Source of the DNA: Dehalococcoidia bacterium
Lineage (GTDB): Bacteria; Chloroflexota; Dehalococcoidia; UBA6926
NCBI GenBank assembly: GCA_034422835.1
Contig: DAOUJJ010000006.1
Span: 64,799 to 128,798 of the forward strand
Length of the DNA: 64,000 nt
Direction: 5' to 3'
Numbering within the stretch: position 1 is the stretch's first letter; every line of letters begins with the position of its first letter. The position numbers and the translations under genes are program-made. Below the pieces are notes generated by a model. The model saw only the letters and a list, made by a program, of their open reading frames with translations. It did no database searches and was not told where the DNA came from. Shown here piece by piece: positions 6,150-64,000 of the stretch.

Positions 6150-6205
6150 GAGACGGGCTACGATTATCAGGGTTTGGCAAGATACGAGCGCGCTTTGGCG
6201 CGCGT

Positions 6206-6232
6206 GGATTCCCGCCTTCGCGGGAATGACGG
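6206..6232. repeat. REP-like palindromic element GGATTCCCGC-CTTC-GCGGGAATGACGG
   Basis: Intergenic, between the mutase gene and the SDR gene. Same core as the other copies. Confidence 0.7.
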
Positions 6233-6265
6233 AACAGAAGAGTTACGGAACAGGGGGTAAGGACG

Positions 6266-11474: not shown

Positions 11475-11481
11475 CCGTGCC

Positions 11482-14148: not shown

Positions 14149-14305
14149 GGTCTCGATCCTCGCAAGAACGGCAGGTTGTCGCTGTGGAATAGGGTGCGGT
14201 TGGGGACGTTTAGGTCTGCCATGCGTAGTGTTCTCCGGCGTTTGCTGCGCCTATAGGGACAGGGTACAGGTTTTGCGCGGTCAATGCGAACGTATGGGCG
14301 GCGCT

Positions 14306-14331
14306 GGATTCCCGCGTGCGCGGGAATGACG
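14306..14331. repeat. REP-like palindromic element GGATTCCCGC-GTGC-GCGGGAATGACG
   Basis: Same palindrome core as at 6206, 11571, 12513, 37302, 37741 and 42895. Confidence 0.7.
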
Positions 14332-14402
14332 ATGGTGAGCAATCACGTCTTTAGATTCTTCGACTCCGCTGCGCTCCGCTCAGAATGACAGTTGGGGGCG
14401 CT

Positions 14403-14441
14403 CGCCCTTCGACAGGCTCAGGGTGAACGGTGGGGCGGGGG
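14403..14441. repeat. Companion repeat CGCCCTTCGACAGGCTCAGGGTGAACGGTGGGGCGGGGG
   Basis: Related copies at 42947-43007 and 12471-12490, reverse-complemented at 40775-40800, and partially at 37262-37290. Confidence 0.6.
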
Positions 14442-14449
14442 TTATGGGG

Positions 14450-15472
14450 TTACGCCGTCATTCTGAGGTTGGGGGTGGCGTCAAGGCTGCCGTTATCGGG
14501 TTGGGCGCCGTGCTCGATGACGAATGCGGCGCGGGCGGCGATCATCACGCCGTTGTCCGTGCAGAGTCCGGGGCGGGGCCGCCATACGGGCATGTCCGCT
14601 TTGCGCAGAACATCCTCGCCGAGGGCGCTGTTTGCCGCGACGCCGCCGGACAGCATGACCGACTTTGCCTTCGTCGCCCGAGCGACCTCCAGCAGGCGGT
14701 CCGCCAAGCCCGTGACGGCGGTCTGCTGAAAGCCCGCGGCGATGTTGGCGACATCCTCCTGCGTCAGCGCGTCCGTCCCGCCCATTTCGTTCACCACGCG
14801 GAGCACCGCCGTCTTGAGGCCGCTGAAGCTGAAATCCCATGAGTCCCTGATCAGCGGGCTGGGAAAACGGACGGGATCGGTCGCCTCACGCGCGACGCGT
14901 TCGATGATCGGGCCTCCTGGGTAGCCAAGGCCAAGCAGCCGCGCCACCTTGTCGAACGCCTCACCCGCGGCATCATCTCTCGTCTCGCTCAGTAGCCGGT
15001 AGTTCTCGTGCTCCTCAACCAGCACGATGTCCGTGTGGCCGCCGGAGACGATGAGCGCAACGGACGGCAGCAGCGGGTCGCCCCGCTCCTCACTGTCCCA
15101 CTGCCCGTCCACAATCCAGTTTGCATAGACGTGCCCCTCAAGGTGGTGGATGCCGTACAACGGCAGGTCCCACGCCATGGCGAGCGCCTTGGCGAAATTG
15201 ACGCCCACCAACAGGGAGCCCGCCAGCCCGGGGCCGTACGTGACGGCGATGGCATCGAGATTGAGGTCTCCGTCATGTTTCTGCATGACGTCACGCAGGA
15301 GCGTGGGGAACGTCAGCAGGTGTTGGCGTGACGCAATCTCCGGAACCACGCCGCCGAATCGCGCGTGGATATCCGCCTGTGATGAGAGTCCATGGACGAT
15401 GAGGCGCCGGCCGTCCTCAACGAGGGCGATGCCGGTCTCATCGCAAGACGATTCAATACCAAGGACTCTCAT
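14450..15472 (-). CDS. tsaD: tRNA N6-adenosine threonylcarbamoyltransferase
   Basis: Kae1/YgjD family with MRVLGIESSCDETG, HHLEGH and SGG motifs; 340 aa. Confidence 0.95.
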   Translation of the reverse strand: MRVLGIESSCDETGIALVEDGRRLIVHGLSSQADIHARFGGVVPEIASRQHLLTFPTLLRDVMQKHDGDLNLDAIAVTYGPGLAGSLLVGVNFAKALAMAWDLPLYGIHHLEGHVYANWIVDGQWDSEERGDPLLPSVALIVSGGHTDIVLVEEHENYRLLSETRDDAAGEAFDKVARLLGLGYPGGPIIERVAREATDPVRFPSPLIRDSWDFSFSGLKTAVLRVVNEMGGTDALTQEDVANIAAGFQQTAVTGLADRLLEVARATKAKSVMLSGGVAANSALGEDVLRKADMPVWRPRPGLCTDNGVMIAARAAFVIEHGAQPDNGSLDATPNLRMTA

Positions 15473-20408: not shown

Positions 20409-20737
20409 GCAGGCGACGAAATCAGACTCCGAGGCCGGGTCAGGGCGGCGGGCGCGATGGACGCGCCGGTCGCGGCGGCCAGCCAAATATGGGCGGGAAC
20501 CGGGCGGAGCGGCGGTCATTCCTGGAGCGGCTGCGCGTGCGTGAGGACGTGGCACCAGACGCGCCGTCGGGAATGCGGCGGGGGCAGCAGCGCGGCAACA
20601 ACAGGCCGCGACGCCGCGGCGAAGGCTGGACGTTCGGGCGCATATTCGTCCTGACTGTTATGGTTCTCATTGGCCTTGCAGTGGCGCTGAGCGGCTTCGT
20701 GGGGGTTCTCTCTCAAGGCGGGGGACCGACTAGCTAG
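20405..20737 (+). CDS. Hypothetical Arg/Gly-rich protein with C-terminal TM helix (110 aa), translationally coupled to tilS
   Basis: ATGA overlap with the tilS stop. The N-terminus is highly basic and the C-terminus is hydrophobic (IFVLTVMVLIGLAVALSGFVGVL). Could be real or GC-bias noise. Confidence 0.35.
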   Translation: MSRRRNQTPRPGQGGGRDGRAGRGGQPNMGGNRAERRSFLERLRVREDVAPDAPSGMRRGQQRGNNRPRRRGEGWTFGRIFVLTVMVLIGLAVALSGFVGVLSQGGGPTS

Positions 20738-20742
20738 CACGC

Positions 20743-20768
20743 TTGACATTATAGAACACATGTATTAT
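20743..20768 (+). promoter_or_regulatory. Putative promoter (TTGACA ... TATTAT) in a 30-bp AT-rich patch upstream of the Gp37/Gp68-TcmP pair
   Basis: Perfect -35 TTGACA at 20743-20748, with T/A-rich -10 candidates 14-16 nt downstream. Followed by a CCCCCTC...GAGGGGG inverted repeat at 20772-20800. Confidence 0.35.
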
Positions 20769-20806
20769 TCTCCCCCTCGCGGCGGGAGTGAGTGAGGGGG
20801 CGCGGC

Positions 20807-21550
20807 GTGGCATCGTCGATTGAGTGGACGGACGAGACGTGGAATCCCGTCACGGGCTGCTCACGTGTCTCCCCGGGCTGCGATAATTGCTACATGTTCG
20901 CGCTGTACCCGAGGCTGCACGCGATGGGCGTGCCGGGCTACGAGGAATCGGCGGACACGGTCAAGCTGCTGCCTGAGCGCCTCAATGCCCCGCTAACATG
21001 GGCCAAGCCGCGCCGCGTGTTCGTGAACAGCATGTCCGACCTGTTCCATCCCAAGGTGCCATTTGAGTTCATCTCGCAGGTCTTCGACGTCATGCGCCAA
21101 GCGGATCAGCACATTTTCCAAGTGCTGACCAAGCGGCCCGGCAAGGCAGCGGGATGGTGGGAGCAGTGCGGCAAGCATGAGTTCGGCGAGTGGCCGTCCA
21201 ACGTGTGGATCGGGACATCGGTCGAGAACCAGAAGTACGCCCCACGCCTGACTGTTCTTGGGCGGATTCCCGCCGACGTTCGCTTTGTATCCGCTGAGCC
21301 TCTGTTGGGGCCTTTGGATCTCACACACTGGCTTGAGAATGACACCTTGCAATGGGTCATCGTCGGTGGTGAGAGCGGATCCCGCGCACGACCAATGGAC
21401 GAAGAATGGGCAAATTCTTTGCAGGAGCAGACCCAAAATGCAAGGGTGAGCTTCTTCTTCAAGCAGTGGGGCGGCCGGCGGGGCAAACGCAGCGGGGAAG
21501 AGGCCATCCTGGCCGGCAGGACGTGGCAGGAGATGCCGGTCGCGGTTTGA
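20807..21550 (+). CDS. Phage protein Gp37/Gp68 family (DUF5131) with N-terminal three-Cys motif, 247 aa
   Basis: IEWTDETWNPVTGCSRVSPGCDNCY (C-x6-C-x2-C), then FVNSMSDLF, WVIVGGESG, FFFKQWG, all characteristic of PF07505. GTG start 6 nt after GAGGGGG. Confidence 0.8.
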   Translation: MASSIEWTDETWNPVTGCSRVSPGCDNCYMFALYPRLHAMGVPGYEESADTVKLLPERLNAPLTWAKPRRVFVNSMSDLFHPKVPFEFISQVFDVMRQADQHIFQVLTKRPGKAAGWWEQCGKHEFGEWPSNVWIGTSVENQKYAPRLTVLGRIPADVRFVSAEPLLGPLDLTHWLENDTLQWVIVGGESGSRARPMDEEWANSLQEQTQNARVSFFFKQWGGRRGKRSGEEAILAGRTWQEMPVAV

Positions 21551-21554
21551 ATCG

Positions 21555-22412
21555 ATGACCCAGCACCCTTCATTCGGCGGCCCGTGGACTCAGGAAAAAC
21601 TTGACATTCTGAGCCATTACTTGAATTCGTACACAACTGCACTCAAGAATTTTTCCTTTAACCTCATTTATATTGATGCCTTCGCCGGATCAGGTTCCTA
21701 TCAGATGGGCACTCTGGACCCTAACAGCCCTTATCAGGATTTTGACGACCATCGCCAAGGGTCTGCCAGGTTAGCCCTTGATGTCGACGACAAGCCGTTT
21801 GACCGACTTATCTACATCGAGAAGAATCCCGAATTTGTGACTTCTCTAAATGCAATAAAGCGCCAGAACCCTAAACGCTCTATAGATGTGATTGAGGGTG
21901 ACGCCAACGAAGAACTACCAAAGATTTGCGAGGCTATGGGTCCGAGAGACAGAGCAGTAATGTTCCTTGACCCGTACAAAACAGAGGTTAATTGGGTGAC
22001 AGTAGAAGCGATTGCGAAGACTGAAAAGATCGACTGCTGGATACTCTTTCCATTGATGGCGCTCACTCGAATGATGGATAAAGACGAACGGCCAAGTGAA
22101 AGCCTTTCGCTTGAACTGGATCGGGTTTTCGGTGAGAGACATTATTGGCAAGACAATCTCTATCGCCGCTCGGAGCAACAGTCGTTATTCCCGGACGAAG
22201 AACTTGTGGTTAGAGAGCCTCAGTATCGGATTGCTGAGGTATATCGAGACAGACTAGCGACCATATTTGCCGCCATTGCACCAACTAGACGCTTACTTGT
22301 GAACTCCCAGAACGCGCCATTGTTCGAACTGATCTTTGCTGTTGCTTCTCCAAGTCCTCGTGCAAAATCGCTAGCTATACGGATTGCTGAGCATAACCTT
22401 TCGAGCCCATGA
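21555..22412 (+). CDS. TcmP-like (three-Cys-motif partner) protein with Dam-like methyltransferase motifs, 285 aa
   Basis: Immediately downstream of Gp37/Gp68, the conserved family pairing. Contains IYIDAFAGSGSY (motif I, FxGxG) and VMFLDPYK (motif IV, DPPY-like). GC is ~48%, well below flanks. Confidence 0.7.
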   Translation: MTQHPSFGGPWTQEKLDILSHYLNSYTTALKNFSFNLIYIDAFAGSGSYQMGTLDPNSPYQDFDDHRQGSARLALDVDDKPFDRLIYIEKNPEFVTSLNAIKRQNPKRSIDVIEGDANEELPKICEAMGPRDRAVMFLDPYKTEVNWVTVEAIAKTEKIDCWILFPLMALTRMMDKDERPSESLSLELDRVFGERHYWQDNLYRRSEQQSLFPDEELVVREPQYRIAEVYRDRLATIFAAIAPTRRLLVNSQNAPLFELIFAVASPSPRAKSLAIRIAEHNLSSP

Positions 22413-34273: not shown

Positions 34274-36568
34274 ATGACACAAACGCAGCAAGAAGGAACG
34301 CGCATTGTTGGGCGGGGGGTTCAACGCGTCGATAGCGCTGAACGCCTGACCGGCGAGGCCGTGTTCGGCGCGGATCACACCACGGAGGGCACGCTGTACG
34401 CCAAGCTGGTCCGCAGCCCCTACGCCAATGCGCGCGTTCTCAGCATCGATGTCTCAAAGGCCGCGGCCATGCCCGGCGTGCGTGCAATCGTCACGTCCGC
34501 CGACTTTCCCTACATCGCCATGAGCAACCAGGCCGTCGGCGGCGAGATCACCATGACGCCGCGTGATCAGCGGCGGATGCAGATGGCGGAGGACCGCATC
34601 TTCTATCACTGGCAAGCCGTCGCCGCGATCGCTGCGGACGACGTGACGACTGCCGAGGAGGCCGCCGCGCTCGTTGAGGTTGAGTACGAGCCGATTGAAC
34701 CTGTCGTTGACGTGGAGCGCGCCGTTCGGCCTGAGTCATCCCTCGTTCACGATGATCTCTACACGTGGGAGTTCGCCGGGGGGCCGTCCGACAGACCAAG
34801 CAACATAGCTCGCCGCGTTGAGTTTGAGCGCGGCGACGTTGAGCAGGGCTTTGCCGAAGCGGACATCGTCATTGAGAGGACCTTCCGCGGCGGCACCGTC
34901 CACCAGGGATATTTGGAGCCGCAGGCATGCACGGTGGACGTGCGCGAGGACGGCCATCTGACCGTGTATTCATCCAGCCAGATCAGTTTTAACTTGCGCG
35001 ATACGCTGTCCATCATCCTCGGCCTGCCGCAGGACAAGATCACTGTCGTGCCGCTGGAGATCGGCGGCGGATTTGGCGGCAAGGCGGGGCTTGGCATCGA
35101 GTTCGTGACGGCGCTGCTGGCAATGAAGGCTCGCCAACCCGTCAAGTTGGTGCTTGCGCGTGAGGAGGTCTTTCGCGCGTCCGGGCCCACGTGCGCCCAC
35201 GTCATCAATCTCCGCATCGGCGCGATGCGAGACGGCACGGTGACGGCGTTCGACGGCCGCTATCTGCTGGACACCGGCGCGATGACGGGTTTCACACATT
35301 CCGCCACCGCGGCGCTGACCGGCGCATCGCACTACCGCTTCAAGCATCTGCACATTGACGCCTATGACGTTGTGACGAACAAGCCTGTCGCGATGGCCTA
35401 CCGCGCTCCGAGCGGCCCCATCGGCAACTACCCGACCGAGGTCGTGATGGATGAGCTTGCAGAGGAATTGGGGATGGATCCCATCGACCTCCGTCTTAAG
35501 AACGTGACGGAGGAGGGCGACCCGCTCCCCAACAGCCTCAATATGCCGGTCTGGGGCCTGAAGAAGATTCTGCTCGCCGCAAAGGAGCATCCCGCATGGA
35601 CTGATCCCGTGCCGGATGGACACGGTCGCGGCTTTGCGGCGGCGTACTGGGGCGGCGCGACGCTCACATCGAGCGCGGAGATCGTCGTCAACCCGGACGC
35701 GACGTTCGAGGTCACAACCGGTTCAGTCGACCTCACAGGCACGCGCACGACGATGGCGCAGTTCGCCGCCGAAGAGTTGGGCGTGGAGATGGAGCAGGTC
35801 AGCGTCCGCAGCGGCGATACGGACTCCGTCGGCCATACGGACGGGTCGTTCGGCAGCCGCACGACACTCACGACGGGAACCGCCGTGATGCTCGGCGCCC
35901 GTGACGCGCTGGAGCGGCTGCGCGCCGTCGCGGCGGACATGCTCCGCGTCGAACCGGACTTCGTCGACTACGAGAATCAGACATTCACAGCGCGTGATTC
36001 CGATCGGAGCGTCACCCTGGCCGATGCTTGCAAGGCGGCGGTGGAGGCCAATGAGGGCGAGGAGCTGAAGGTCATCAACATGGCAACGGGGCTGCCTGCC
36101 GCGCCAACGTCAGCGGCGTCCATCGCGGAGGTGGCGGTCGACAAGGCAACCGGTCGGACGGAGATCAAGCGGTTTACGATCTTCCAGGACCCCGGCAACG
36201 CGATCAATCCGCTGGCCGTCGAGGGCCAGATGCAGGGCGGCGCGGCGCAGGGCATCGGCTGGGCGCTGTGGGAGGTGTACGACGTCGACGTCGCGACGGG
36301 CATGATCCGCAACCCGAACTTTTTGGACTACCGGATGCCGACGACTGTTGACGTGCCGATGATCGAGCCGGTCATCGTGTCTACGCCGAACCCGAGCGGG
36401 CCGCACGGGGCGCGGGGTGTGGGCGAGATACCCTTGGTCACACCCGTGGGCGCAATCGGCAACGCCATCTACCACGCAACGGGCGTCCGCCTGCACCAAA
36501 CGCCATTCACGCCTGAGCGGGTCTTGTGGGGGCTAAAGGGGTTGGAGGGGGCCACTCGACCAGCGTAG
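34274..36568 (+). CDS. Xanthine dehydrogenase / CoxL-family molybdopterin-binding subunit, 764 aa
   Basis: Aldehyde oxidase/xanthine DH a/b hammerhead and MoCo-binding domains, seen as conserved Gly-rich blocks. ATG at 34274 follows GAGGGG. Confidence 0.9.
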   Translation: MTQTQQEGTRIVGRGVQRVDSAERLTGEAVFGADHTTEGTLYAKLVRSPYANARVLSIDVSKAAAMPGVRAIVTSADFPYIAMSNQAVGGEITMTPRDQRRMQMAEDRIFYHWQAVAAIAADDVTTAEEAAALVEVEYEPIEPVVDVERAVRPESSLVHDDLYTWEFAGGPSDRPSNIARRVEFERGDVEQGFAEADIVIERTFRGGTVHQGYLEPQACTVDVREDGHLTVYSSSQISFNLRDTLSIILGLPQDKITVVPLEIGGGFGGKAGLGIEFVTALLAMKARQPVKLVLAREEVFRASGPTCAHVINLRIGAMRDGTVTAFDGRYLLDTGAMTGFTHSATAALTGASHYRFKHLHIDAYDVVTNKPVAMAYRAPSGPIGNYPTEVVMDELAEELGMDPIDLRLKNVTEEGDPLPNSLNMPVWGLKKILLAAKEHPAWTDPVPDGHGRGFAAAYWGGATLTSSAEIVVNPDATFEVTTGSVDLTGTRTTMAQFAAEELGVEMEQVSVRSGDTDSVGHTDGSFGSRTTLTTGTAVMLGARDALERLRAVAADMLRVEPDFVDYENQTFTARDSDRSVTLADACKAAVEANEGEELKVINMATGLPAAPTSAASIAEVAVDKATGRTEIKRFTIFQDPGNAINPLAVEGQMQGGAAQGIGWALWEVYDVDVATGMIRNPNFLDYRMPTTVDVPMIEPVIVSTPNPSGPHGARGVGEIPLVTPVGAIGNAIYHATGVRLHQTPFTPERVLWGLKGLEGATRPA

Positions 36569-36596
36569 CGCACGAGACCTTCCGAAAGGCAGACTG

Positions 36597-37178
36597 ATGG
36601 CGGATTACACTCTCGATTTTCATGGCACGCAACCATCTTGGCTAGAAGCTAAGCAGGAATTCCTCGACCTTTACCATCGAGCATTAAGGCAGTCCGGCAG
36701 CAAACGCAGATCGCGAATTGACGTTGTTCATGGGTACGGATCAACCGGTGAGGGAGGCGTGATTCGTGATTCTCTTCGAGACTTCCTAGCTACACGATTG
36801 AAGTACCTAGAATATAGGCCGGGTGAAGTCGTGGACAACAATTCGGGGCACACAATAGTAATTCCTCGGCTACCCATACCCGGTTACGAGTACCAGCGCC
36901 CACAAAGATCTCGCGACTCTCAGCATGTTTCGCGAAGTCCTTCAGTTCCTCAGAAAAGTACAGTGCGGCGGGCAAGCAGCAACAGGGTCGTCGAGAACGA
37001 AATCCTAGGCTATTGTTCAGAATCGCGCACAATGCATGAGATTCATCTGCGGCTGAATGGCCGACTCGGACAATCTCAATTGAGTGCATTGGTTTGGTCC
37101 CTAATTGCAGAGCGCAAGCTAATCACCCGAACCAGCAACGGTAAACTTGTATTCCGGAGTCACAATAAATCAACGTAG
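36597..37178 (+). CDS. Smr-domain protein with C-terminal winged-helix-like region, 193 aa (low-GC)
   Basis: LDFHGTQPSWLEAKQEFLDLYHRALRQSGSKRRSRIDVVHGYGSTGEGGVIRDSLRDFL matches the Smr (MutS2 C-terminal) nuclease domain. GC is ~48%. Confidence 0.6.
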   Translation: MADYTLDFHGTQPSWLEAKQEFLDLYHRALRQSGSKRRSRIDVVHGYGSTGEGGVIRDSLRDFLATRLKYLEYRPGEVVDNNSGHTIVIPRLPIPGYEYQRPQRSRDSQHVSRSPSVPQKSTVRRASSNRVVENEILGYCSESRTMHEIHLRLNGRLGQSQLSALVWSLIAERKLITRTSNGKLVFRSHNKST

Positions 37179-37303
37179 TGGATTTCTACGGTGGGGTGCA
37201 TGAATCGACGGCCTTGTTTCGATGACGAGACGCTGGATTATTACCGCGAGTTGTTTGCGGAGGGGTAGGCTCAGAGCTGCCATGGGCAGCTAAGGACTTC
37301 TGG

Positions 37304-37383
37304 ATTCCCGCTTTCGCGGGAATGACGAGGCGGGGAGCCTACTCCTCGTCTTCCTCCGCATCATCATCCAAGATTTCGGCGTC
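37304..37383. repeat. 80-bp direct repeat copy A: REP palindrome plus duplicated gyrA 3' end (last 14 codons + stop)
   Basis: 77/80 identical to 37741-37820. Copy A lacks the rest of gyrA (stops after 3 codons upstream). Confidence 0.85.
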
Positions 37384-37515
37384 ACCGCTGTGACCTGTTT
37401 TCCAGCACTGTGATAGAGTGGTTGCGCACATTTGACGCCATCGTAAACGAGAGCATAACCGCGGGAAATCTGGTTGCTCCATTAGGCATACCGAGCTAAA
37501 GGAAGGAGCATAACG

Positions 37516-37740
37516 GTGCCGGAAGAGCCCCTGGGCTACGTTGATCTGACGCTCAAATACGAGTTTGAGGAAGAACAGTGGATTGGAGTTTGCCTCGAAC
37601 TCAGCACGAGCACATTCGCCGATACGCTCGATGAGGTACAGGACGACCTAACGCGACTTGTCATCGAACACCTCAACCTCTTGGAAGACGCCGGCGAAAG
37701 AGAGCGATTCTTCAAGGAGCATGACATCTCTTACCACTAG
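37516..37740 (+). CDS. HicB/UPF0150-like small protein (74 aa) lying exactly between the two 80-bp direct repeats
   Basis: YVDLTLKYEFEEEQWIGVCLELSTSTFADTLDEVQDDLTRLVIEHL resembles the HicB N-terminal domain. The stop codon abuts repeat copy B. Low GC. Confidence 0.45.
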   Translation: MPEEPLGYVDLTLKYEFEEEQWIGVCLELSTSTFADTLDEVQDDLTRLVIEHLNLLEDAGERERFFKEHDISYH

Positions 37741-37820
37741 ATTCCCGCTTTCGCGGGAATGACGGGGCGGGGAGCCTACTCCTCGTCTTCCTCCGCATCA
37801 TCATCCAGGATGTCGGCGTC
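37741..37820. repeat. 80-bp direct repeat copy B (genuine gyrA 3' end + downstream REP palindrome)
   Basis: Partner of copy A at 37304-37383. Confidence 0.85.
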
Positions 37821-40631
37821 CGCATCATCCTCGCCGTCGAGGATTTCTGCGTCTGTGTCCTCGCCCTCAATCAGCGCATCGTCCTCAAGCGGGGCGTCGT
37901 CGTCCGGCACAATTTCTACGATGCTCTCGGACGGTTCGTCGGAGATTTCGGCGGTTGATTCCTCAGTGGTCTCCGCCTCTGCGGCCTTTGCCCTGCCGTT
38001 TCTGCGGCTCTTGGCGGATGTCTTTGTCTTTGCGCCGGCTTTGGCCTTCGACTTCGCGCCGTTCTTCTTACCGGAGCCGTTCTTTGCCTCCGGCTTGGGG
38101 AGTTCCTCTTCGGGCTCCGGGAACTGCGCTATCGCGACGACTACATCATCCTGCTCAAGGCGCATCACATGGACGCCGCTGGTGTCTCTCCCACGCGTGG
38201 GCCGCACATTGTCGAGAGTGGTGCGTATCACGATGCCCTTCCTGGAGATGAGCATGATCTCCTCGTCGCGCTTGGCGGCGGCGAGGCCCACAATCAGGCC
38301 GGTGTTCTTGTGGCGATCACTCCGCACCTTGAACGTGGCGACCCCCATGCCGCCCCTGTTGCGGAGCGGGTACCCGTCGGTCTGGGTCCCTTTCGGCGTT
38401 TCGACAACCGCTCCGGTGCCCATGCGCGTGCTCTTGCCATAGCCACGGGCAGAGATTACGAAAAGGTACTTCTCCGGGTCTGCCATAACCGCGCCAACGA
38501 CGTTGTCTTCCGTGCCTCGCTTGCCGAAGCGGATGCCGCGCACGCCGCCGGACGTTGCGGATGCAACTCTCAACGCGTTCGTCTCGAATCGGATAGCGAG
38601 ACCTTGCTCGGTTACGAGAATGACCTGGTCTTCCTCCTTTGCCAGGATGACGCTGACAAGATCGTCACCCTCTTCCAGATCCATCGCCTTCTTCCCAGTG
38701 CTGCGGATGCGGACGAAGCGCTCCAGGGGCGTTCGCTTCACCTCGCCCTTGCGCGTGGCGAATACGAGGTAATCGTGTTCAGAGAGATCAGATGCCGCCA
38801 TAACGGTCGTCACTTGCTCGTTGGGCGCCAAGGCGCTGCCCTGGAACAGGTTGGCGACGGGGATGCCGCGCGCCGTCCGTGACGCCTCCGCCGGCAGGTC
38901 AAAGCACCTGAGCGTCGTTACGCGGCCCCGGTTTGTGAAGAACAGCAGCGTGTCATGCGTGTCACAGACCAACAGGTGTTGAACGATGTCCTCTTCTCGC
39001 GTGGTCACGCCGGTCACGCCCCTGCCGCCCCGGTGCTGCCGCCGGTACGCGGACGCCAGCACGCGCTTGATGTAGCCGCGCTGGCTGATGGTGACGACGA
39101 CCTCGTTGTGCGGAATCAGATCCTCGCGGCGAACCGCGCCGAGTTCGTTCTCGTCAATCTCGGTGCGGCGCTCGTCGCCGTGCTTCTCCTTGAGCTCCTC
39201 GATCTCCTCACGAACGACGGTCGTGATGCGGGTCGGGTCGGCAAGGATGGACTCCAACTCGGCGATGCGCTCACGCAGTTCCTCAAGTTCTTCCAGGATG
39301 GCCTGGCTCTCAAGAGCGGCGAGACGGCGCAGCTGCATATCGAGGATCGCCTGCGCCTGCCGTTGTGACAGCGTGTAGCGCTCGATCAGCGTGATGCGGG
39401 CGGCGTCAGCAGACTCGGCGTTGCGAATGACCTCAATGACTTCATCGAGATTGTCCAGAGCGACGCGAAGCCCCTCCAACACGTGGGCGCGGTCCTGCGC
39501 GCGGCGCAATTCATAGCGTGTGCGGTTGATAACAACATCACGCCGGAAGCGGATGAAGTGGTGGATGATCTGCCGGAGCGGCAGGACCTGCGGCTCTCCG
39601 TCCACCAGCGCCAGGGCGTTGATGGAGAAGGAGGTGCGCATGGCCGTGTGTTCAAAGAGATTGTTGAGAACGATGTGGGCGGCGGCGTCACGCCGCAGTT
39701 CAATGACGACCCGCAGCCCATCGCGGTCCGATTCATCTCGAATCTCGCTGATGCCGTCCAGCCGCTTGCTGCGGACGAGATCGGCCATCTTTTCGACAAG
39801 CGCCGCCTTGTTGACCTGATAAGGAAGTTCAGTGACGACGATCTGCGAGCGTTGGTTGCGCCCTTCGATCTCCTGGATCTCGGCCCGCGCCTCGATGATG
39901 ACGCGGCCGCGGCCGGTGGCGTAGGCGCTGCGCACGCCCTCCGTGCCGCGGATGATGCCCTGGGTGGGGAAATCCGGTCCCTTGATGAATTGATGCAGCT
40001 CATCGAGCGTGGCATCGAACTCGCCGCCGCCCGGCGTCTCGCGCCAGCGTTCGATGGCGAACAGGATGGCATCGCAGACTTCAGTCAGATTGTGGGGCGG
40101 CATGTTTGTCGCCATGCCGACGGCGATGCCCGCCGTGCCGTTGACCAAAAGGTTGGGAATGCGTGCCGGCAGGACAACCGGCTCACGCTCCGAACCGTCA
40201 AAGTTCTCCGCAAACGCGACGGTCTGCCTGTCGATGTCGGTAAGCATCTCCTCCGCGATAGAGGCCAGCCGCGCCTCCGTGTAGCGCATGGCAGCGGGCG
40301 GATCGTTATCGACGGAGCCAAAGTTGCCCTGACCGTCAACAAGCGGATAGCGCAGCGAGAACGGCTGGGCAAGGCGAACAAGGGCGTCATAGACCGGCGA
40401 ATCGCCGTGCGGATGGTACTTGGCGATGACATCACCCACGACACGGGCGCTCTTGCGGTAGGCGGTGTTGCTGCGCATCCCCTGTTCATACATGGCGTAG
40501 AGGACACGGCGCTGGACGGGCTTGAGTCCGTCTCGAACATCCGGCAGGGCGCGCGAGACGATGACGCTCATCGCGTAGTCCAGATACGCCTCGCGCATCT
40601 GGCGTTCAAGGGCAACGGAGCGTTCAACCAT
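37776..40631 (-). CDS. gyrA: DNA gyrase subunit A
   Basis: Active-site Tyr region ([10 protein letters not shown]), GyrA-box (QRGGRG) in the C-terminal beta-pinwheel, acidic tail. ATG at 40631 sits 9 nt after GGAGG. Confidence 0.95.
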
Positions 40632-40755
40632 GAAGCATCGCCTCCATCCCGGGCCGACGGGCAAATCAGGCGCTAAGAAACGTCGGAAATCCTATTTGAT
40701 TCGTGCGCCCAGTCTAGCATTTTTGGGGTGGAAATGCATCACATATACGGGTCGG

Positions 40756-40838
40756 TGCGTGACCCTGAGCCTTCTTCCTCCGGTCACCCTGAGCGCAGTC
40801 GAAGGGCGAACTCCCCCATGTCATTCCGAGCGCAGCCG
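40756..40838. repeat. Composite REP-like repeat (reverse orientation): GGTCACCCTGAGCGCAGTCGAAGGGCGAAC plus degenerate GTCATTCC...GGAATC palindrome
   Basis: Reverse complement matches the CGCCCTTCGAC...GCTCAGGGTGA companion motif. Forms the left border of the MTase-HNH islet. Confidence 0.55.
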
Positions 40839-40844
40839 AGGAAT

Positions 40845-41150
40845 CTAAATTCTGCTTCGCAAGGCCTCTCGCACTAGCGCGGCCCGACCTCTGCCGTCTA
40901 TTCCGAAATATCCGATTGCCCGCAAACGGCCAAACTTTGTGTCACTGCGAATCTCTTCCTTTTCCCTTTCGTCCATGTCCGAATAGTCGAGGATTTCATC
41001 CAATGTCATTTTATCCATGTCATCCGAAGACAGGAGCATGAACTTTACGATCGCCTCATGATGCGGATCGTACGCGGCTGTCCATTTCGGGCGAGGCGTC
41101 TGAAACCTCCGCTTGATGGACTCTATGAGCACGACGACAATCTTCACCAT
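40845..41150 (-). CDS. Hypothetical small acidic protein, 101 aa, downstream in the MTase-HNH operon (low GC)
   Basis: ORF immediately downstream of the MTase-HNH gene on the same strand. No recognisable domain. Confidence 0.4.
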   Translation of the reverse strand: MVKIVVVLIESIKRRFQTPRPKWTAAYDPHHEAIVKFMLLSSDDMDKMTLDEILDYSDMDEREKEEIRSDTKFGRLRAIGYFGIDGRGRAALVREALRSRI

Positions 41151-41165
41151 TTTCTGGCCCCTTTC

Positions 41166-42626
41166 TCAGTCGCGCCGGATACCATCTCGCCGAAGTTTCG
41201 CTAGCAGTTCCTCTTGCGTTCCCGTGCCTTTCGTCGAGTTGCAAGCCTGACACAGTAGTTGCAGGTTGGCGATGTGGTCAGTACCGCCCTTTGCGCGGGG
41301 TACGACGTGGTCGATGGTGAGATTGCGATACGGGAACAACGTTAAGCATCCGCTACAATGTCCCTCTTGCGCTCCGTACAGGTGACGCTTGTTCGCGTCC
41401 ACATTGTACGGCGGGATGCTTCCCAAGTCCGTCCGTCTGGGAACGTCGGTGCGATGATTGACTCTCAGTGAAGTGAATCCCAACTCATTGCCGAGCCGCA
41501 TCTTGACCAGTTCGTGGGCCTTTGGCGATACGTCTATGCCTACCCACTTGCGCTTCTCGCCATCTTTGAAGCTCTCTGCGGCCACGCACGCCGTCGCGCA
41601 ACCACAGAACGGATCGAGTACTACATCGCCGGGATCAGAGGACGCTGCAATGATGCGCTTTAGCAGGGCAAGGGGTTTCTGTGTGGGATACCCCGTGCGC
41701 TCCGAGTGATTGCCCGTTAGCGCCGGAATATCGTCCCACAGATTCGAGACGGGTTGGCCCTTGCTCTCATTGAGATACACCTTGCGCTCAGGGACACCTG
41801 CCCTGCTTTCGGGGATGCCCGCGCCGCTCCGAGCCTGTCTGATTCGTTTGTCTGCATCGAGTTCCATCATTCGCGCCTGGCTGTAACGCCATGTCCGCAC
41901 ATGACCACGAAACTCATATTGATACCCTCCCCCCGACAATCCGCCCGTATGCAGGGGGGCAGTACGGTAAGGCCCGCGCCCATCGTTGTCATTGTGACGA
42001 TATGTCTTCTTTACGTATTCAGGGTCAAGAGGACGGCGCGGGCCATTCCAAATCCCCTTGCCATCTTTCGCATAGAAGAGCAGCGTATCGCAAACACGGC
42101 CAAAGCCTCGGGCGTCGTTGTGAGAGCCGTACCGCCGCCACACAACCTCATTGCGAAAGTTGCCCTGCCCAAAGATAGAGTCCATGACCTGCTTGAGATA
42201 GTGACTGGCCGTGTCGTCGCAATGCAGGTAGATGCTGCCCGTCGTCTTGAGGACGCGCTTCATCTCAAGCAAGCGGACGGCCATCATAATCAGGTACGCC
42301 TTCATACCCTTGCCATGCGACAGACCGGCGGCGTCAATCACGCTGTAGAGCGCAGGCTCCTTCTCCGCAATCTCGCCGTGCCATGCCACGTCCAAATCGT
42401 CGAGCGTCCAAATGTCCTTGAATTCCGCGCCCTCTGCCGGACTGCCGATTGGCGCTCCGTAACTCTGATTGGAGTTGAACGGAGGATCGAGATAGATGAG
42501 GTCTACTGTCTCGCTGTTCATACCCCGCAGAATGTCGAGGTTGTCACCCGTCCAGATAGTACGATTCTTGAAGTTGGGGGCTGCCATCAGCGCGCCCCAT
42601 CCCGGGGGCGCGCGACGATGCGGCAT
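41166..42626 (-). CDS. DNA methyltransferase (N6-adenine/N4-cytosine, beta-class: DPPF ... FxGxG) fused to C-terminal HNH endonuclease domain, 486 aa
   Basis: Motif IV IYLDPPFNS precedes motif I VVLDPFCGCATA (beta-class order). The C-terminus CSGCLTLFPYRNLTIDHVVPRAKGGTDHIANLQLLCQACNSTKG is an HNH motif. GC is low relative to flanks. An alternative start at 42587 (MAAPNF...) is possible. Confidence 0.85.
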   Translation of the reverse strand: MPHRRAPPGWGALMAAPNFKNRTIWTGDNLDILRGMNSETVDLIYLDPPFNSNQSYGAPIGSPAEGAEFKDIWTLDDLDVAWHGEIAEKEPALYSVIDAAGLSHGKGMKAYLIMMAVRLLEMKRVLKTTGSIYLHCDDTASHYLKQVMDSIFGQGNFRNEVVWRRYGSHNDARGFGRVCDTLLFYAKDGKGIWNGPRRPLDPEYVKKTYRHNDNDGRGPYRTAPLHTGGLSGGGYQYEFRGHVRTWRYSQARMMELDADKRIRQARSGAGIPESRAGVPERKVYLNESKGQPVSNLWDDIPALTGNHSERTGYPTQKPLALLKRIIAASSDPGDVVLDPFCGCATACVAAESFKDGEKRKWVGIDVSPKAHELVKMRLGNELGFTSLRVNHRTDVPRRTDLGSIPPYNVDANKRHLYGAQEGHCSGCLTLFPYRNLTIDHVVPRAKGGTDHIANLQLLCQACNSTKGTGTQEELLAKLRRDGIRRD

Positions 42627-42894
42627 CGCATCGTGGAACGGAACCGACTATCCACTGAGTGCCCCCCTGCGGCATCGTGACCGGGACTTCTTGCAACAGG
42701 AGCCAGCAATCAACGTAGATCCGCAAGGGGACAGGGGAATCCCTGCCGCGATGCGATTGACCTACGCTCAAAAAAGAATACGTAGCTCCTGTTGCACGCT
42801 CATTCTGCTAGCCGTCGGGGAGGCTGTCAACGGGAATTAGTGGTCGCTCCGTACGGGTGAGTGGCAACGGTGATGTGGGGCTCAATGAGTTTCG

Positions 42895-43007
42895 GATTCC
42901 CGCTTTCGCGGGAATGACGGAGGGGGACGGGAATGACGGAGGGCGGGCGCCCTTCGACGGGCTCAGGGCGAACGGGGGCGGGGGTAGGCTCAGGGTGAGC
43001 GGTGGGG
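42895..43007. repeat. Composite REP-like repeat: GGATTCCCGCTTTCGCGGGAATGACGG + GGGAATGACGG + CGCCCTTCGACGGGCTCAGGGCGAACGG + GGCTCAGGGTGAGCGG
   Basis: Right border of the MTase-HNH islet. Same motifs as at 14306-14441. Confidence 0.7.
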
Positions 43008-43036
43008 GCTTGGGGGGCGCTGGGGGCGCGGGGGCT

Positions 43037-44380
43037 TTATTGGCCTAGGTGGATTTCTGTTGTTGGGTTGAGGGCTGCCCAGAGGAACCAGAGGGCGTTA
43101 TCCGCCTTGACGGGTGTTAGGCGCTGACCGCCAAGCTCACCCTCATCACCGGCTCCAAGCAGCGTCCACAGCGTTCCGGTTTCCGTGTCACGGAAGAAAT
43201 CGCCCGCCGCCTCAAATTCCAGGATGCGATCACCAAGCCGTCGGCTGAACGCTGCTGCGGAGCCGGAGTCGTGCGATGCCGCAATGCTCTCTTCATCCAG
43301 GGCCGAACGCGTGCCGGCTTTCCAGAACACAACCACCGGCTCGCCGCCAATCTCCGTATTGACGACCTGCGCCTGCCTGAGGCGCGCAAACGGGAACGCA
43401 ATGACCTCCTCGCCGATCTCCACGCCCAGCACGCGCTCCTTGGGGCTCAGGCGCTCATCAAGTTGGCCGATGAAAAGGTCAGGCGGATTGTTGGGCGAAT
43501 CGTAGCCGAAATACTGCGAGCCGCCGTACACGGGCCAGAACTCCGGGTTTCCGCTTGCCGGCGACAAGACTCTGCCCTCAGGGTACGAGCGGAAGAACTC
43601 GGCGAAGGAGGTGATGTAGGCGGGGATGTACTCAAGCTGCTGCCCCGCCGCCGCGCCGACGATGGCCTGTCCGCCCGCCTGCTGCCACCACGATTCCGTT
43701 TGATCGTCCCACATCACCTGGTTGGAAAGGCGCAGGTTGCCCGTTGTGCCGAAGTTCAGTTCGACACCGTCAACCACACGGCTAAAGGCCTTTGCCGTGT
43801 ATCCCAGCGGAGAATATGTAACGAGCACCGGCTGGCCGCCGATGCTGTCATTCACGACCTCATGGAAGGTCAGGATGCCGAGCGGATAGGCGCGGGCATC
43901 GCCATTGATCTCCACAACAGCGACGGGATGATCAAGCGTCAGCCAACTCCGCATGGCTTCATCTGCGACTGTTTCAAGAACCGAGCGGAATTGAGGTTGA
44001 TAGATAGGCTCGATCCCGTTTCGAGCCGCTCCACCGGAGATAATCTCATCCGGGTCCACCGTCCATCGGCGGAAGTCCGTCTCCCGCCAATGGCTGATGT
44101 TCACGCTGAGCGGCGGAATCTCCACATAGACGTTCACACCGTCAACAACGTCAAAGTGCCCGGGGGCAGGCGTATTCGTTGCCACGGCGGGCGGCAGAGT
44201 GGAGCGTGGCGTCGGACTGGCGCCGGGAATCAAGCTGCGGTCGCCGGTTGCCGTACTTCCATTGCACCCGACAGCCAATGCGGCAACGACTACCACCGTA
44301 ATCAGTGGCACAATAGCAAGGGCGGGCTGCAATCGGTTCATTACCCGAAGCCTGAAGGTATTAGCCAGTCGGTTCGTCAT
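43037..44380 (-). CDS. DUF3179-family secreted/lipoprotein, 447 aa
   Basis: Signal/TM N-terminus with Cys (LAVGCNGS). Central PVLVTYSPLGYTAKAF block resembles the DUF3179 core. Confidence 0.55.
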   Translation of the reverse strand: MTNRLANTFRLRVMNRLQPALAIVPLITVVVVAALAVGCNGSTATGDRSLIPGASPTPRSTLPPAVATNTPAPGHFDVVDGVNVYVEIPPLSVNISHWRETDFRRWTVDPDEIISGGAARNGIEPIYQPQFRSVLETVADEAMRSWLTLDHPVAVVEINGDARAYPLGILTFHEVVNDSIGGQPVLVTYSPLGYTAKAFSRVVDGVELNFGTTGNLRLSNQVMWDDQTESWWQQAGGQAIVGAAAGQQLEYIPAYITSFAEFFRSYPEGRVLSPASGNPEFWPVYGGSQYFGYDSPNNPPDLFIGQLDERLSPKERVLGVEIGEEVIAFPFARLRQAQVVNTEIGGEPVVVFWKAGTRSALDEESIAASHDSGSAAAFSRRLGDRILEFEAAGDFFRDTETGTLWTLLGAGDEGELGGQRLTPVKADNALWFLWAALNPTTEIHLGQ

Positions 44381-62596: not shown

Positions 62597-64000
62597 TTAG
62601 ACCCTATTCCGTTTCCGATGCCGGCGCCACAGCAGCCACAGCAACAGCAGTAGTAGCACCAGGATCAGCCACAGGTAGATCAGAGTATTCAGCAGCGTCG
62701 GCTCCTGAATAATCTCCGCAGGCTCAGCGGGTGTTGGCGTAGGTGTGGCCGCCGGTGCAGGCGTCGCTGTCGGAGTAGGCGTCGCTGTCGGAGTAGGCGT
62801 CGCTGTCGGCGTGGGTGTCGCTGTCGGTGTAGGCGTCGCTGTCGGTGTAGGCGTCGCTGTCGGCGTAGGCGTCGCTGTCGGTGTGGGCGTCGCTGTCGGT
62901 GTGGGCGTCGCCGTCGGCATAGGTGTCGCTGTCGGTGCAGGCGTCGCCGTGGCCGTAGGCGTCGGCGGGTCCGGATCCGAGTCCGGGGGCGGATCGACCG
63001 TCGGGGGCTCAGGCGCTGGCGGGATCACCGTAGGCCCGGATGAGTCGTCATCGACGATGGTCAGCGTCAGGGTGTTTGTGGCCCACGGGTCGGATATGGT
63101 ATCGGACGCCAATCCCGACACCGTCAGCCTCCGGTGAGGTTCATCCACCTGGTTGTCATTGGGGATTATCACTATGCCGTTGCTGACCGTCCGGCCCGGC
63201 GGGATGGTCAGTGAGTGGGTGGGCATCGTGAAGATGCCGGACGATTGTGGCGGGTCCACCATCACCTGTATCGTCGTCATCGCGACGGACGGCCGGTCCA
63301 GGGTGGCATGTACGGTACTGGATTCCCCCTTCTCTGAGATAGAACTAGGCGCCAGTTCCAGCGTAACCCGGGGTTTTGGCGCGTCGGGCGCCGGGGGTTG
63401 CGGAGCGGCCTGTCCGGTGTTGTATATCACTCCGCCGCTAGTAGCTACCTGGATGCCGGATGCGGTGATGTCCGCGTCCGCGCCCCAGCAGGCGGCCTTC
63501 CCCGCCATGGTGACGGCGCATGTGTGAAAAGCGCTGGCGGCAACGGCGCCAAAACGGACGTAGCGGTATTTTTCCGGTACGGTAACCTGACCGAAATCGG
63601 CAGTGGTGCCTGCTGCGCCACCCCAGCAGGCCACTCGCCCTGCCCTGGTTACGCCGCAGCTGTAATAAAGCCCGACGGCGACATCGGCGAAAGCTGCGCC
63701 GCTCAACTCAGCCGGCAGGGTGGATTGCCCGTATGCGTTCCACCCCCAGCAGCGCACTGTCCCGTCCGCCTGGCCGTTCTGTCCATCCAGGATGCCGCAG
63801 TTATGGTAGGCCCCGGCGTCTATTGTGGAGAAAGTGCCTTCCGGCGCCTCGGCTTGATCGTGATTCTGCCCGTCAGGCGGGGTTCCCCAGCACTTTACCG
63901 TGCCGGCCGCTTGCTCATTCTGCCCATCGAGGATGCCGCAGCTGTGATACCACCCGCCTGTAACGGCAGAAAAGGTGGACTGGGCCAGGTCATTCGGCAA
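62597..64000 (-). CDS. RCC1-repeat (beta-propeller) surface protein with Pro/Thr-rich linker and C-terminal TM anchor; N-terminus beyond window end
   Basis: Repeated [15 protein letters not shown] units (RCC1-like). Linker of (TPTPTA)n, then hydrophobic [19 protein letters not shown] and basic tail. The frame is open to the window edge. Confidence 0.7.
62762..62960. repeat. 18-bp tandem repeat (GGCGTCGCTGTCGGTGTA)n, ~11 copies, encoding the (TPTPTA)n linker
   Basis: Near-perfect tandem units with G/C wobble variation; internal to the RCC1-repeat protein gene. Confidence 0.85.

Follow-up and report, generated by a model that had tools for sequence, protein, structure and literature searches.

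Between gyrA and a DUF3179 gene, in a 64,000-nucleotide stretch of Dehalococcoidia DNA that we call the window, lies a gene that joins a DNA methyltransferase to an HNH nuclease domain and is followed by a small ORF. What would such a protein do, how did its gene come to lie there and is the small ORF its partner? An earlier note on this DNA had described a low-GC islet with REP-like repeats as its boundaries, and had proposed a self-contained, possibly phage-derived module with a small acidic protein as controller or immunity factor. We followed these proposals up by domain searches, comparison with related loci and analysis of the surrounding DNA; the features are listed in Table 1.

Table 1. 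Coordinates in the window of the features of the methyltransferase–HNH locus.
Feature	Coordinates	Strand	Evidence
Variable slot between conserved gyrA-upstream and DUF3179-downstream DNA	40738..43070		Alignment and blastn against L002
Two left-flank REP-like units, GTCACCCTGAGCGCAGTCGAAGG and GTCATTCCGAGCGCAGCCGAGGA	40783..40842	(+)	Pattern search
Small-ORF cassette: RBS, ORF, terminal REP	40818..41166	(-)	86–92% DNA identity to L001, L002, L003 and L084
101-aa orphan ORF; helical protein with basic ends and an acidic middle, pI 8.0	40845..41150	(-)	ORF list, homologue search, AF2
Putative methyltransferase–HNH mobile unit: promoter-like site, leader, gene	41158..42832	(-)	DNA identity to L088 and L089
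Methyltransferase–HNH fusion CDS	41166..42587	(-)	ORF list; Pfam N6_N4_Mtase and HNH_5/HNH; match to P0001
HNH (His-Me finger) nuclease domain, CxxC...DH...N...CxxCN	41199..41357	(-)	Pfam, NCBIfam and PDB matches
Beta-class, Type III Mod-like amino-methyltransferase domain, residues 1–375	41463..42587	(-)	Pfam, PDB sequence and fold matches
Target-recognition-domain cassette, about residues 151–300	41699..42147	(-)	blastn gap against L088 and L089; identity per region
Long hairpin in the conserved 5′ leader of about 200 nt	42688..42804	(-)	MFE, compensatory changes, covariance model
Promoter-like site TTGACA-17-CAGAAT, 5′ edge of the transferred unit	42802..42830	(-)	Consensus match only
Right-flank composite REP cluster, copy of genome-wide elements	42884..43007	(+)	Repeat families D2, D12, D14, I1 and I3

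Domains and family of the fusion protein

The reading frame of the fusion stays open as far upstream as an ATG at 42626 (41166–42626(-)), which gives a 486-aa reading; the start at 42587, which gives 473 aa, is backed by the family alignment, by a family-wide M-x-x-PNF/W start and by a 100% match to a protein of 473 aa (P0001). Pfam scans confirmed that methyltransferase and HNH nuclease share one polypeptide. N6_N4_Mtase (PF01555) matched residues 41–375 of the 486-aa reading (E = 1.3e-38, 133.6 bits against a gathering cutoff of 26.7), and HNH_5 (2.7e-13, 50.1 bits, cutoff 27.5) and HNH (6e-13, 49.1 bits, cutoff 21.4) matched residues 424–476; no RAMA domain was detected by the scan. The DPPF of motif IV (residues 34–37) lies N-terminal to the DPFCGCAT of motif I (residues 325–332), the order of the beta class to which the enzyme had been assigned, with the recognition domain, the variable region of the protein, between them. 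The methyltransferase part matched Mod, CcrM and RsrI among PDB sequences, its best fold match was EcoP15I Mod (4zcf, E = 2e-18) and the PADLOC model MTase_III covered residues 21–378 (E = 2e-39), all PADLOC matches to the protein being to generic methyltransferase models. The motif IV Asp and one source annotation (the name of P0014) suggest N6-adenine as the base modified. A linker of about 45 aa leads to a complete CxxC/DH/N/CxxC-N HNH domain, with the HNH domains of IscB and Cas9d as its NCBIfam matches and 4h9d and Cas9 as its PDB matches.

More than 8,000 proteins match the fusion, and all 120 among the matches listed have the same architecture. The family spans many bacterial phyla and one Nitrosopumilus MAG, mostly sponge-symbiont lineages by name, and even the closest relatives are drawn from many phyla. 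Across 191 members, the DPPF and DPFxGxAT motifs are about 100% conserved. We also checked whether the HNH motif is a degenerate zinc ribbon, and found the catalytic residues retained: H427 and N441 in 191/191 members, N450 in 189/191, and the Zn-site cysteines C411, C414, C446 and C449, two CxxC pairs of the McrA/Cas9-type subgroup, in 189–191 of the 191 (99–100% for all seven positions). The nuclease thus appears catalytically competent, and strong purifying selection acts on both active sites. Elsewhere the homologous methyltransferase core (44–47% identity) carries Mrr (Mrr_cat, PD-(D/E)XK) or T5orf172 instead, joined at the same point. That one core is fused to unrelated nuclease folds suggests that nuclease activity as such is the selected trait. 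HNH, GIY-YIG-like and PD-(D/E)XK domains are also folds of free-standing homing endonucleases, however, so this domain-swap argument is not exclusive to restriction.

Members of the family are publicly annotated simply as ‘DNA methyltransferase’, and some cellular loci hold truncated, methyltransferase-only derivatives. Our literature searches found no characterised methyltransferase–HNH fusion, and in the PDB entries and papers found, an HNH domain was never fused to an amino-methyltransferase. No partner gene is conserved beside the fusion gene in 80 loci. When the ORFs of 83 loci were clustered and the neighbours on both sides scanned with Pfam, the IS1595 transposase was the sole recurring gene; no Res or helicase family recurs among the neighbours of the 80 loci, nor is a separate gene for specificity or for a nuclease conserved near family loci. 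In the window, the fusion gene has gyrA, the 101-aa ORF and the DUF3179 gene as neighbours.

The recognition domain departs sharply from this conservation. Compared with its relative P0003, the protein is 93% identical in the N-terminal region, 96% in the C-terminal methyltransferase region and 100% in the HNH domain, but 31% in the recognition domain; against the family, identity is 25–46% in the recognition domain versus 61–78% in the other regions. At the DNA level, the recognition-domain segment of the window is unique against otherwise 92% identical relatives, and it interrupts the blastn alignment with L088 and L089. One locus (L060) carries four tandem copies with three distinct recognition domains among them; the frames are 93–100% identical and the recognition domains 17–36%. 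We conclude that specificity is probably altered through exchange of a recognition-domain cassette. Hypervariable recognition domains are typical of defence specificity, unlike those of housekeeping methyltransferases; regulatory methyltransferases such as CcrM and Dam have fixed specificity.

Mobility of the gene and its genomic slot

The unit formed by the promoter-like site, leader and gene is 92% DNA-identical to L088 (window 42832–42148 and 41698–41158) and 83–86% identical to L089, and both copies stand in gene contexts unrelated to that of the window. The promoter-like site is invariant in all three, with the L088 homology starting exactly there; its exact pattern is absent from JGI metagenome contigs. 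The leader, 221 nt long, folds with an MFE of −109 kcal/mol (z = −4.85), and its hairpin shows four compensatory pair changes in L089. We rejected the hairpin as a family-wide element, since its covariance model matches only the window, L088 and L089. No known RNA families, tRNA genes or terminators were found in the islet.

An IS1595 transposase lies immediately upstream of the family gene in at least 8 loci. In L022, L028 and L068, the IS1595 DDE transposase and the methyltransferase–HNH gene lie together within GGGAATTAT... terminal inverted repeats, and in L022 an 8-bp target duplication accompanies these repeats. Such relatives resemble IS1595 transposons with passenger genes. The window copy differs from them: with no transposase ORF in the islet and no match to inverted repeats of the GGGAATTAT type, it was rejected as IS1595 cargo. 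The promoter-like site, the 92% identical copies in unrelated contexts and the IS1595-borne relatives argue that the gene is, as regards mobility, the self-contained module that had been proposed, apparently moving horizontally as a single gene. The suggested phage origin did not hold. Relatives in INPHARED phages, PLSDB plasmids and IMG/VR have the methyltransferase only, and the HNH tail, present in 71/96 proteins of cellular loci, occurs in one (L090) of the best 80 viral loci.

Both flanks of the locus were confirmed by the ORF list and Pfam (gyrA, 37776–40664; DUF3179, 43037–44380, E = 3e-85). DNA conserved with the syntenic locus L002 runs up to about 40737 and again from about 43071, and L002 carries in this slot a methyltransferase–Mrr gene, the small ORF and a 69-aa ORF; the slot is therefore polymorphic. 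The GC dip is present but mild, with 0.58 in the islet and 0.617 (sd 0.029) as the mean of the window, within the lowest 11% of windows of the same size, and a GC3 of 0.67 against 0.78 in gyrA and carA. The REP-like repeats on either side are likewise real and non-random. On the left, GTCAYYCYGAGCGNAGYCGARGR occurs twice (40783–40805 and 40820–40842), and the pattern search gave 3 matches against 0.02 expected by chance; on the right, GATTCCCGCTTTCGCGGGAATGAC lies at 42895–42918 within the composite cluster, whose core has 8 copies in the window and whose 85-nt composite is found again at 12452–12536. They do not bound the islet, since such repeats are genome-wide, and we rejected them as element ends because, in addition, the two sides differ in type and neither is an inverted repeat of the other. 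L001 and L002 both retain the second left unit together with the small-ORF cassette, and the left REP is part of that cassette.

The 101-aa ORF

As described earlier, a 101-aa ORF follows the fusion gene; it begins 15 nt downstream, with no predicted terminator in between, and is preceded by the SD-like GAAAGGGG. The protein is not acidic as had been stated, with 18 D+E against 19 K+R and an acidic stretch at residues 41–72 only. It has no Pfam, NCBIfam or PADLOC match and no HTH or other recognisable domain, and its all-helical AF2 model gave no PDB fold match (best Foldseek E = 3); the low confidence of this model (pLDDT 66) makes the structural test for an HTH a weak one. Substitutions are biased by codon position, with position 2 lowest, which suggests that the ORF is translated. 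Searches of 5.8 billion clusters found only 7 homologues, and a search of 1.84 billion representatives added none.

Homology of the small-ORF cassette to L001, L002, L003 and L084 begins 12–16 nt upstream of the ATG, and in the window the cassette is joined to the methyltransferase–HNH unit at an 8-nt microhomology, GAAAGGGG/GGAAGGGG. In six other loci the ORF adjoins a methyltransferase–Mrr gene, which is intact in five of them and divergently oriented there, and in L084 the ORF and the neighbouring methyltransferase–nuclease gene are degraded together. It is absent from 80/80 other methyltransferase–HNH/nuclease loci and from the two closest relatives of the fusion gene (L088 and L089). We conclude that its pairing with the fusion gene in the window is, in all likelihood, a secondary juxtaposition of a separate cassette that is not a regular partner; the ORF is now probably co-transcribed with the gene, though not required by it.

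We consider it rather unlikely that the 101-aa protein functions as an accessory to methyltransferase–nuclease fusions, for example a regulator or nuclease inhibitor, in which case the window would hold a true two-gene system. All 7 carrier loci place the ORF beside a methyltransferase–nuclease gene of the same superfamily, in at least five differing genomic contexts, and the joint decay in L084, the close spacing, SD-like GAAAGGGG and missing terminator in the window, and the codon-position bias are in keeping with such a role. Its absence from the 80 loci and from both closest relatives weighs against it, as do the handful of homologues and the lack of an HTH, known domain or fold match to a low-confidence model. 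Elsewhere, moreover, the partner is an Mrr fusion, divergent where intact, and the arrangement in the window appears to stem from microhomology-mediated juxtaposition, with the ORF’s native upstream region missing. A controller or immunity factor as regular partner, as first suggested, is thus not borne out, and the consistent adjacency to methyltransferase–Mrr genes sustains a weaker form of the partner idea.

Proposed function and its rivals

On balance, we take restriction–modification by a single, self-contained chain to be the most likely function of the 473-aa protein. The Type III Mod-like methyltransferase would use its central recognition domain to read a short DNA motif and would modify host copies of the motif, probably as N6-adenine, so that methylation protects them, and the C-terminal HNH domain on its linker may nick or cut at or near sites that the recognition domain finds unmethylated. 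Each HNH domain has a single active site, and HNH enzymes typically cut one strand per site, so a double-strand break would need a dimer or two sites; beta-class and Mod methyltransferases form dimers, and the enzyme may dimerise, or act on two sites, to make the break. At this locus, a putatively autonomous expression unit of promoter-like site, structured leader and CDS landed in the variable gyrA–DUF3179 slot, where it was joined through microhomology to a pre-existing small-ORF cassette, the normal companion of the related methyltransferase–Mrr gene. Comparative sequence evidence supports restriction–modification on several counts: domain content and order, conservation of both active sites, swapping of recognition cassettes, interchangeable nuclease folds, the lack of a conserved neighbour, viral relatives without the nuclease, IS1595 mobility and spread across phyla. 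Against it, a fused enzyme has difficulty establishing itself in a naive host whose DNA is unmethylated and lacks the separate regulation used by classical systems; the methyltransferase-only truncated derivatives in cellular loci and the purely generic PADLOC matches also count on this side.

Two other readings explain part of the same evidence, and both seem to us improbable. The gene could be a selfish or homing element in which HNH, or Mrr or T5orf172 in relatives, nicks or cuts DNA to spread the methyltransferase cassette into new sites, the methyltransferase recognising the site or protecting the occupied allele. The gene’s occurrence on its own, with sharply delimited homology and in unrelated intergenic settings, would fit this, as would spread across phyla and the textbook use of all three nuclease folds by free-standing homing endonucleases. 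Yet the insertion is intergenic and the contexts vary by locus (window, L088, L089 and 80 loci), never being a conserved target gene, intron or intein; wherever mobility can be traced to a mechanism, a DDE transposase is responsible, with terminal inverted repeats and target duplication; and hypervariable recognition domains and tandem multi-specificity arrays are unexpected of a homing enzyme, which has to retain one target. Alternatively, the protein could be an orphan methyltransferase, regulatory or protective, whose HNH domain serves Zn-dependent DNA clamping or repair nicking or has no catalysis at all, as its public annotation, the many methyltransferase-only relatives and the lack of a separate restriction gene nearby might suggest. 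This reading sits poorly with a catalytic His and Asn that are invariant in addition to the Zn ligands, with the replacement of HNH by other nuclease folds, and with recognition domains that diversify where those of CcrM and Dam are fixed.

A single-chain restriction–modification enzyme of this build would combine traits of several known systems. The order of motif IV, central variable recognition domain and motif I is that of Type III Mod proteins (EcoP15I, 4zcf; Helicobacter pylori, 6k0w; Mbo45V, 7dsu), to which the methyltransferase also has its best fold and best PDB sequence match, and recognition-domain swapping in the family resembles variation among mod alleles. Unlike in Type III systems, there is no Res helicase–nuclease gene nearby (window and 80 loci) and no ATPase, and a small HNH domain is present in cis. 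By domain architecture, the fusion resembles Type IIG/IIC/IIL enzymes (the MmeI, Eco57I, BpuSI and TsoI family) in apparently placing nuclease, methyltransferase and recognition in one chain, with one recognition domain that both activities would share and no need for a partner gene. Characterised enzymes of these types are known to have a PD-(D/E)XK domain at the N terminus, a methyltransferase of the gamma class and a recognition domain at the C terminus (PMC2731913, PMC3751577), whereas the fusion has a beta-class methyltransferase, an internal recognition domain and a C-terminal HNH. The CxxC...DH...N...CxxC(N/H) beta-beta-alpha-metal core is shared with stand-alone HNH enzymes (KpnI, MnlI, Hpy99I, PacI, Gme HNH 4h9d and McrA) and with the HNH of Cas9 and IscB, but all of these are separate proteins or are joined to other recognition modules. 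In a comparative-genomics passage by Iyer, Zhang and Aravind, the RAMA domain is described as a fusion partner of N6A-methyltransferases and of nuclease domains (REase, HNH, URI and T5orf172), most of these nucleases being regarded as restriction endonucleases of N6A-modifying systems (PMC4738411). The fusion shares the general domain class, but those fusions involve RAMA, and that passage does not describe a Mod-like–HNH family, recognition-cassette swapping or IS1595 carriage.

The window itself holds an ordinary family member and an orphan ORF. More tentatively, the family as a whole may be a large uncharacterised class of ATP-independent, single-chain ‘Mod-nuclease’ restriction–modification enzymes, in which an interchangeable C-terminal HNH, Mrr or T5orf172 domain replaces Res, specificity changes by cassette exchange, including in tandem arrays, and IS1595 carries the genes across bacterial phyla, and into archaea, in sponge microbiomes. 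If one recognition domain does serve both methylation and cutting, this compact 473-aa architecture with modular specificity cassettes would differ from all characterised types, would inform the evolution of restriction–modification by nuclease-domain displacement and could be a source of programmable nicking or cutting enzymes; IS1595 carriage would then clearly exemplify transposon-borne transfer of an entire defence unit from one phylum to another. Because the family is very large yet annotated only as ‘DNA methyltransferase’, defence inventories would miss it, especially those for marine MAGs, sponge symbionts included. A joint enrichment of PF01555 and PF01844 has been reported for sponge metagenomes (cited in PMC12284385), and genes of this family could explain some of it.

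The methyltransferase–HNH protein and its family

The earlier observation on this two-ORF islet was largely correct, and its reading of the larger ORF as a beta-class methyltransferase fused to a full HNH motif was borne out. Pfam matched N6_N4_Mtase (E=1.3e-38) and HNH_5/HNH (E~1e-13). The NCBIfam models that matched were those for adenine methyltransferases and, over the tail, those for the HNH of IscB and Cas9d; the only PADLOC matches were to non-specific methyltransferase models of Types II and III. A start at 42587 follows from the alignment of the family and from a 473-aa database entry with 100% identity. In this reading DPPF (residues 34–37) lies N-terminal to DPFCGCAT (325–332), so the methyltransferase is beta-class, and the C-terminal tail, CxxC...DH...N...CxxCN, is a complete McrA/Cas9-type HNH. 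We checked whether the HNH had lost its catalytic His or Asn; both residues, the four Zn cysteines and the methyltransferase motifs are 99–100% conserved in an alignment of 191 members. The nearest fold to an AlphaFold model (pLDDT 78) was EcoP15I Mod, a Type III enzyme subunit (Foldseek E=2e-18), followed by H. pylori Mod, CcrM, M.BceJIV and M.RsrI; the fused HNH was absent from every solved structure matched in PDB sequence and Foldseek searches.

Coordinates of features in the window and in related loci (L022, L028, L068)
Feature	Sequence	Coordinates	Strand	Remarks
gyrA	window	37776-40664	minus	one flank of islet
Small ORF	window	40845-41150	minus	between gyrA and DUF3179 gene
Large ORF, methyltransferase–HNH	window	41166-42626	minus	as first read; between gyrA and DUF3179 gene
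Methyltransferase–HNH unit	window	42832 to 41158	minus	
Long leader hairpin	window	42688-42804	minus	within leader 42588-42800; directly after promoter-like site
DUF3179 gene	window	43037-44380	minus	other flank of islet; Pfam E=3e-85
Smr-domain ORF, 193 aa	window	36597-37178	plus	Pfam E=2e-6; in low-GC stretch 36450-37800
Intergenic REP clusters, GATTCCCGCTTTCGCGGGAATGAC and associated G-rich units	window	6196-6238; 11480-11700; 12426-12582		
Further intergenic REP clusters, GATTCCCGCTTTCGCGGGAATGAC families	window	14296-14459; 37292-37334; 37729-37771		
Complete IS1595-type element, transposase and methyltransferase–HNH	L022	4555-7512		terminal inverted repeats and direct repeat
Element with inverted repeats like L022's	L028	4948-7428		
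Element with inverted repeats like L022's	L068	5016-7226		

A homologue search gave at least 8000 matches; all 120 matches listed share the methyltransferase and HNH architecture (56–77% identity, ~450–470 aa) and, where named at all, are called only 'DNA methyltransferase'. A one-genome-per-species scan found at least 595 relatives, the best 80 of which, a ranking skewed towards relatives of the window sequence, come from Dehalococcoidia and other Chloroflexota, Poribacteria, Acidobacteriota, Latescibacterota, Binatia, Gamma- and Alphaproteobacteria, Bacteroidota, Rhodothermales, Spirochaetia and one Nitrosopumilus MAG. Judged from lineage names, many of these hosts appear to be sponge symbionts; PMC12284385, citing earlier work, states that bacterial metagenomes from sponges are enriched in both PF01844 and PF01555. 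Literature and structure searches found no characterised or solved member. We conclude that the window copy is an ordinary representative of a family that is large and unstudied.

Exchange of domains and mobility

Identity to the window protein was 25–46% over residues 151–300, the recognition domain, and 61–78% elsewhere (191 members). The database relative P0003 is 93% identical in the N-terminal part, 31% in the recognition domain, 96% in the C-terminal methyltransferase part and 100% in the HNH, and at the DNA level one of the two closest relatives, L088, is 92% identical on either side of a 449-nt recognition-domain segment unique to the window. A Flammeovirgaceae MAG (L060, 5947-11867) carries four tandem methyltransferase–HNH genes with frames 93–100% identical and three different recognition domains (17–36% identity), and L059 and L072 likewise combine near-identical frames with differing recognition domains. 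These comparisons indicate that variation across the family is mosaic. Another locus, L070, holds two methyltransferase–T5orf172 genes in tandem.

The nuclease also varies: in other loci, Mrr_cat/PD-(D/E)XK or T5orf172 occupies the C-terminal place of the HNH in fusions with the methyltransferase core (44–47% identity). Viral, phage and plasmid relatives have the core without any nuclease, except that the HNH tail occurs in 1 of the 80 best IMG/VR loci, compared with 71 of 96 proteins in cellular loci; this does not support the phage-derived module proposed in the earlier note. We found no conserved neighbour gene in the 80 loci examined. Together with the conserved active sites and the swapped recognition domain, these features fit a self-contained single-chain restriction–modification enzyme, the best-supported reading and one that we narrowly favour. 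A nuclease effector would then be coupled to a diversifying recognition module in one chain, and mobile elements would keep just the protective half, the methyltransferase, and drop the nuclease. Type IIG/IIC single-chain enzymes offer the closest predicted mode of action, although their canonical layout differs. The methyltransferase belongs to the Mod-like beta-class group, but a Res gene is absent, which excludes a Type III system. In PMC4738411, Iyer, Zhang and Aravind describe a RAMA domain fused to N6A-methyltransferases and to nucleases of several folds, HNH and T5orf172 among them; unlike the fusions described there, our protein has no detected RAMA domain.

The sole recurrent neighbour was a transposase of the IS1595 family. 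It sits immediately upstream, in the same orientation as the family gene, at no fewer than 8 loci whose hosts belong to different phyla. The complete L022 element ends in 41-nt arms (95% complementary) holding terminal inverted repeats that begin GGGAATTATGTAG, and is bordered by an 8-bp direct repeat, AAATCTTT, which we read as a target duplication. Hosts belonging to different phyla carry inverted repeats of this kind; neither they nor the transposase were found at the window copy. The window unit starts exactly at a promoter-like TTGACA-17-CAGAAT, a consensus match invariant in the window, L088 and L089 (the other closest relative). Its ~200-nt leader, folded as a 221-nt stretch, has a predicted energy of -109 kcal/mol (z=-4.85), with four compensatory pair changes in the L089 hairpin. 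A covariance model of the hairpin, R1, matches only these three sequences, so the structure is sublineage-specific; it may act in regulation as a leader or represent a DNA-level palindrome.

The small ORF and the surrounding repeats

Small-ORF homologues numbered 7 in 5.8 billion clusters, with no more among 1.84 billion representatives, and the protein gave no domain (Pfam, NCBIfam, PADLOC) and no fold match. It had been described as acidic; its pI is 8.0, with 18 acidic and 19 basic residues and an acidic segment in the middle only. The ORF is probably translated, as its frame is kept open and second codon positions carry the fewest substitutions.

The earlier note also placed the small ORF in one operon with the methyltransferase–HNH gene, as its partner protein. 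The small ORF does adjoin a methyltransferase–Mrr_cat gene in six of six other carrier loci, spanning at least four further genomic contexts, and is divergent from it in the five with that gene intact; in the decaying sixth (L084, 4085-6198) methyltransferase and Mrr lie on different fragments, with the small ORF truncated to 65 aa. L002, syntenic with the window (gyrA...DUF3179), holds methyltransferase–Mrr together with the small ORF oriented the other way. The ORF is missing from L088, L089 and all 80 other loci, which does not support a dedicated partnership. Window homology to its cassette begins just 12–16 nt before the ATG, and the cassette abuts the methyltransferase–HNH unit end at a common GAAAGGGG/GGAAGGGG. 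This late start, the junction and the absence from relatives argue that the 'operon' arose secondarily, when two cassettes came to adjoin within a variable slot; transcription from the methyltransferase promoter probably continues into the small ORF here. The HNH family does not need the small ORF, and a functional link to methyltransferase–nuclease enzymes in general seems unlikely. In L089 (1740-1830) the methyltransferase–HNH stop is followed by GAAAGGGG and, at about 16 nt, an ATG, an arrangement suggesting that the SD-like unit end may recurrently capture downstream ORFs.

The islet had been described as low in GC and bounded by REP-like repeats. These repeats do exist, in numbers far beyond chance. 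The window contains 8 copies of the right-hand core, and the right flank's 85-nt composite recurs at 12452-12536. The repeats are not element boundaries, since the REP type differs between the left and right flanks and GATTCCCGCTTTCGCGGGAATGAC-family clusters in several intergenic regions indicate that REPs are genome-wide. The GC dip is present but mild: GC is 0.58 where the mean is 0.617, which falls in the lowest 11% of windows, and a GC3 of 0.67 compares with 0.78 in gyrA and carA. Other low-GC stretches lie just downstream of gyrA (36450-37800, 0.54) and at ~20450-21700. Two directly repeated 84-nt copies, 95% identical (37300-37383 and 37737-37820), comprise a REP unit and the last gyrA codons and flank a 74-aa ORF (37516-37740, plus strand) that is HicB-antitoxin-like by eye and has no Pfam match; the 3' end of gyrA may thus have received a small insertion. 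Finally, an 18-nt unit repeated in tandem with at least 13 registers (62696-63019) probably encodes a 6-aa repeat.
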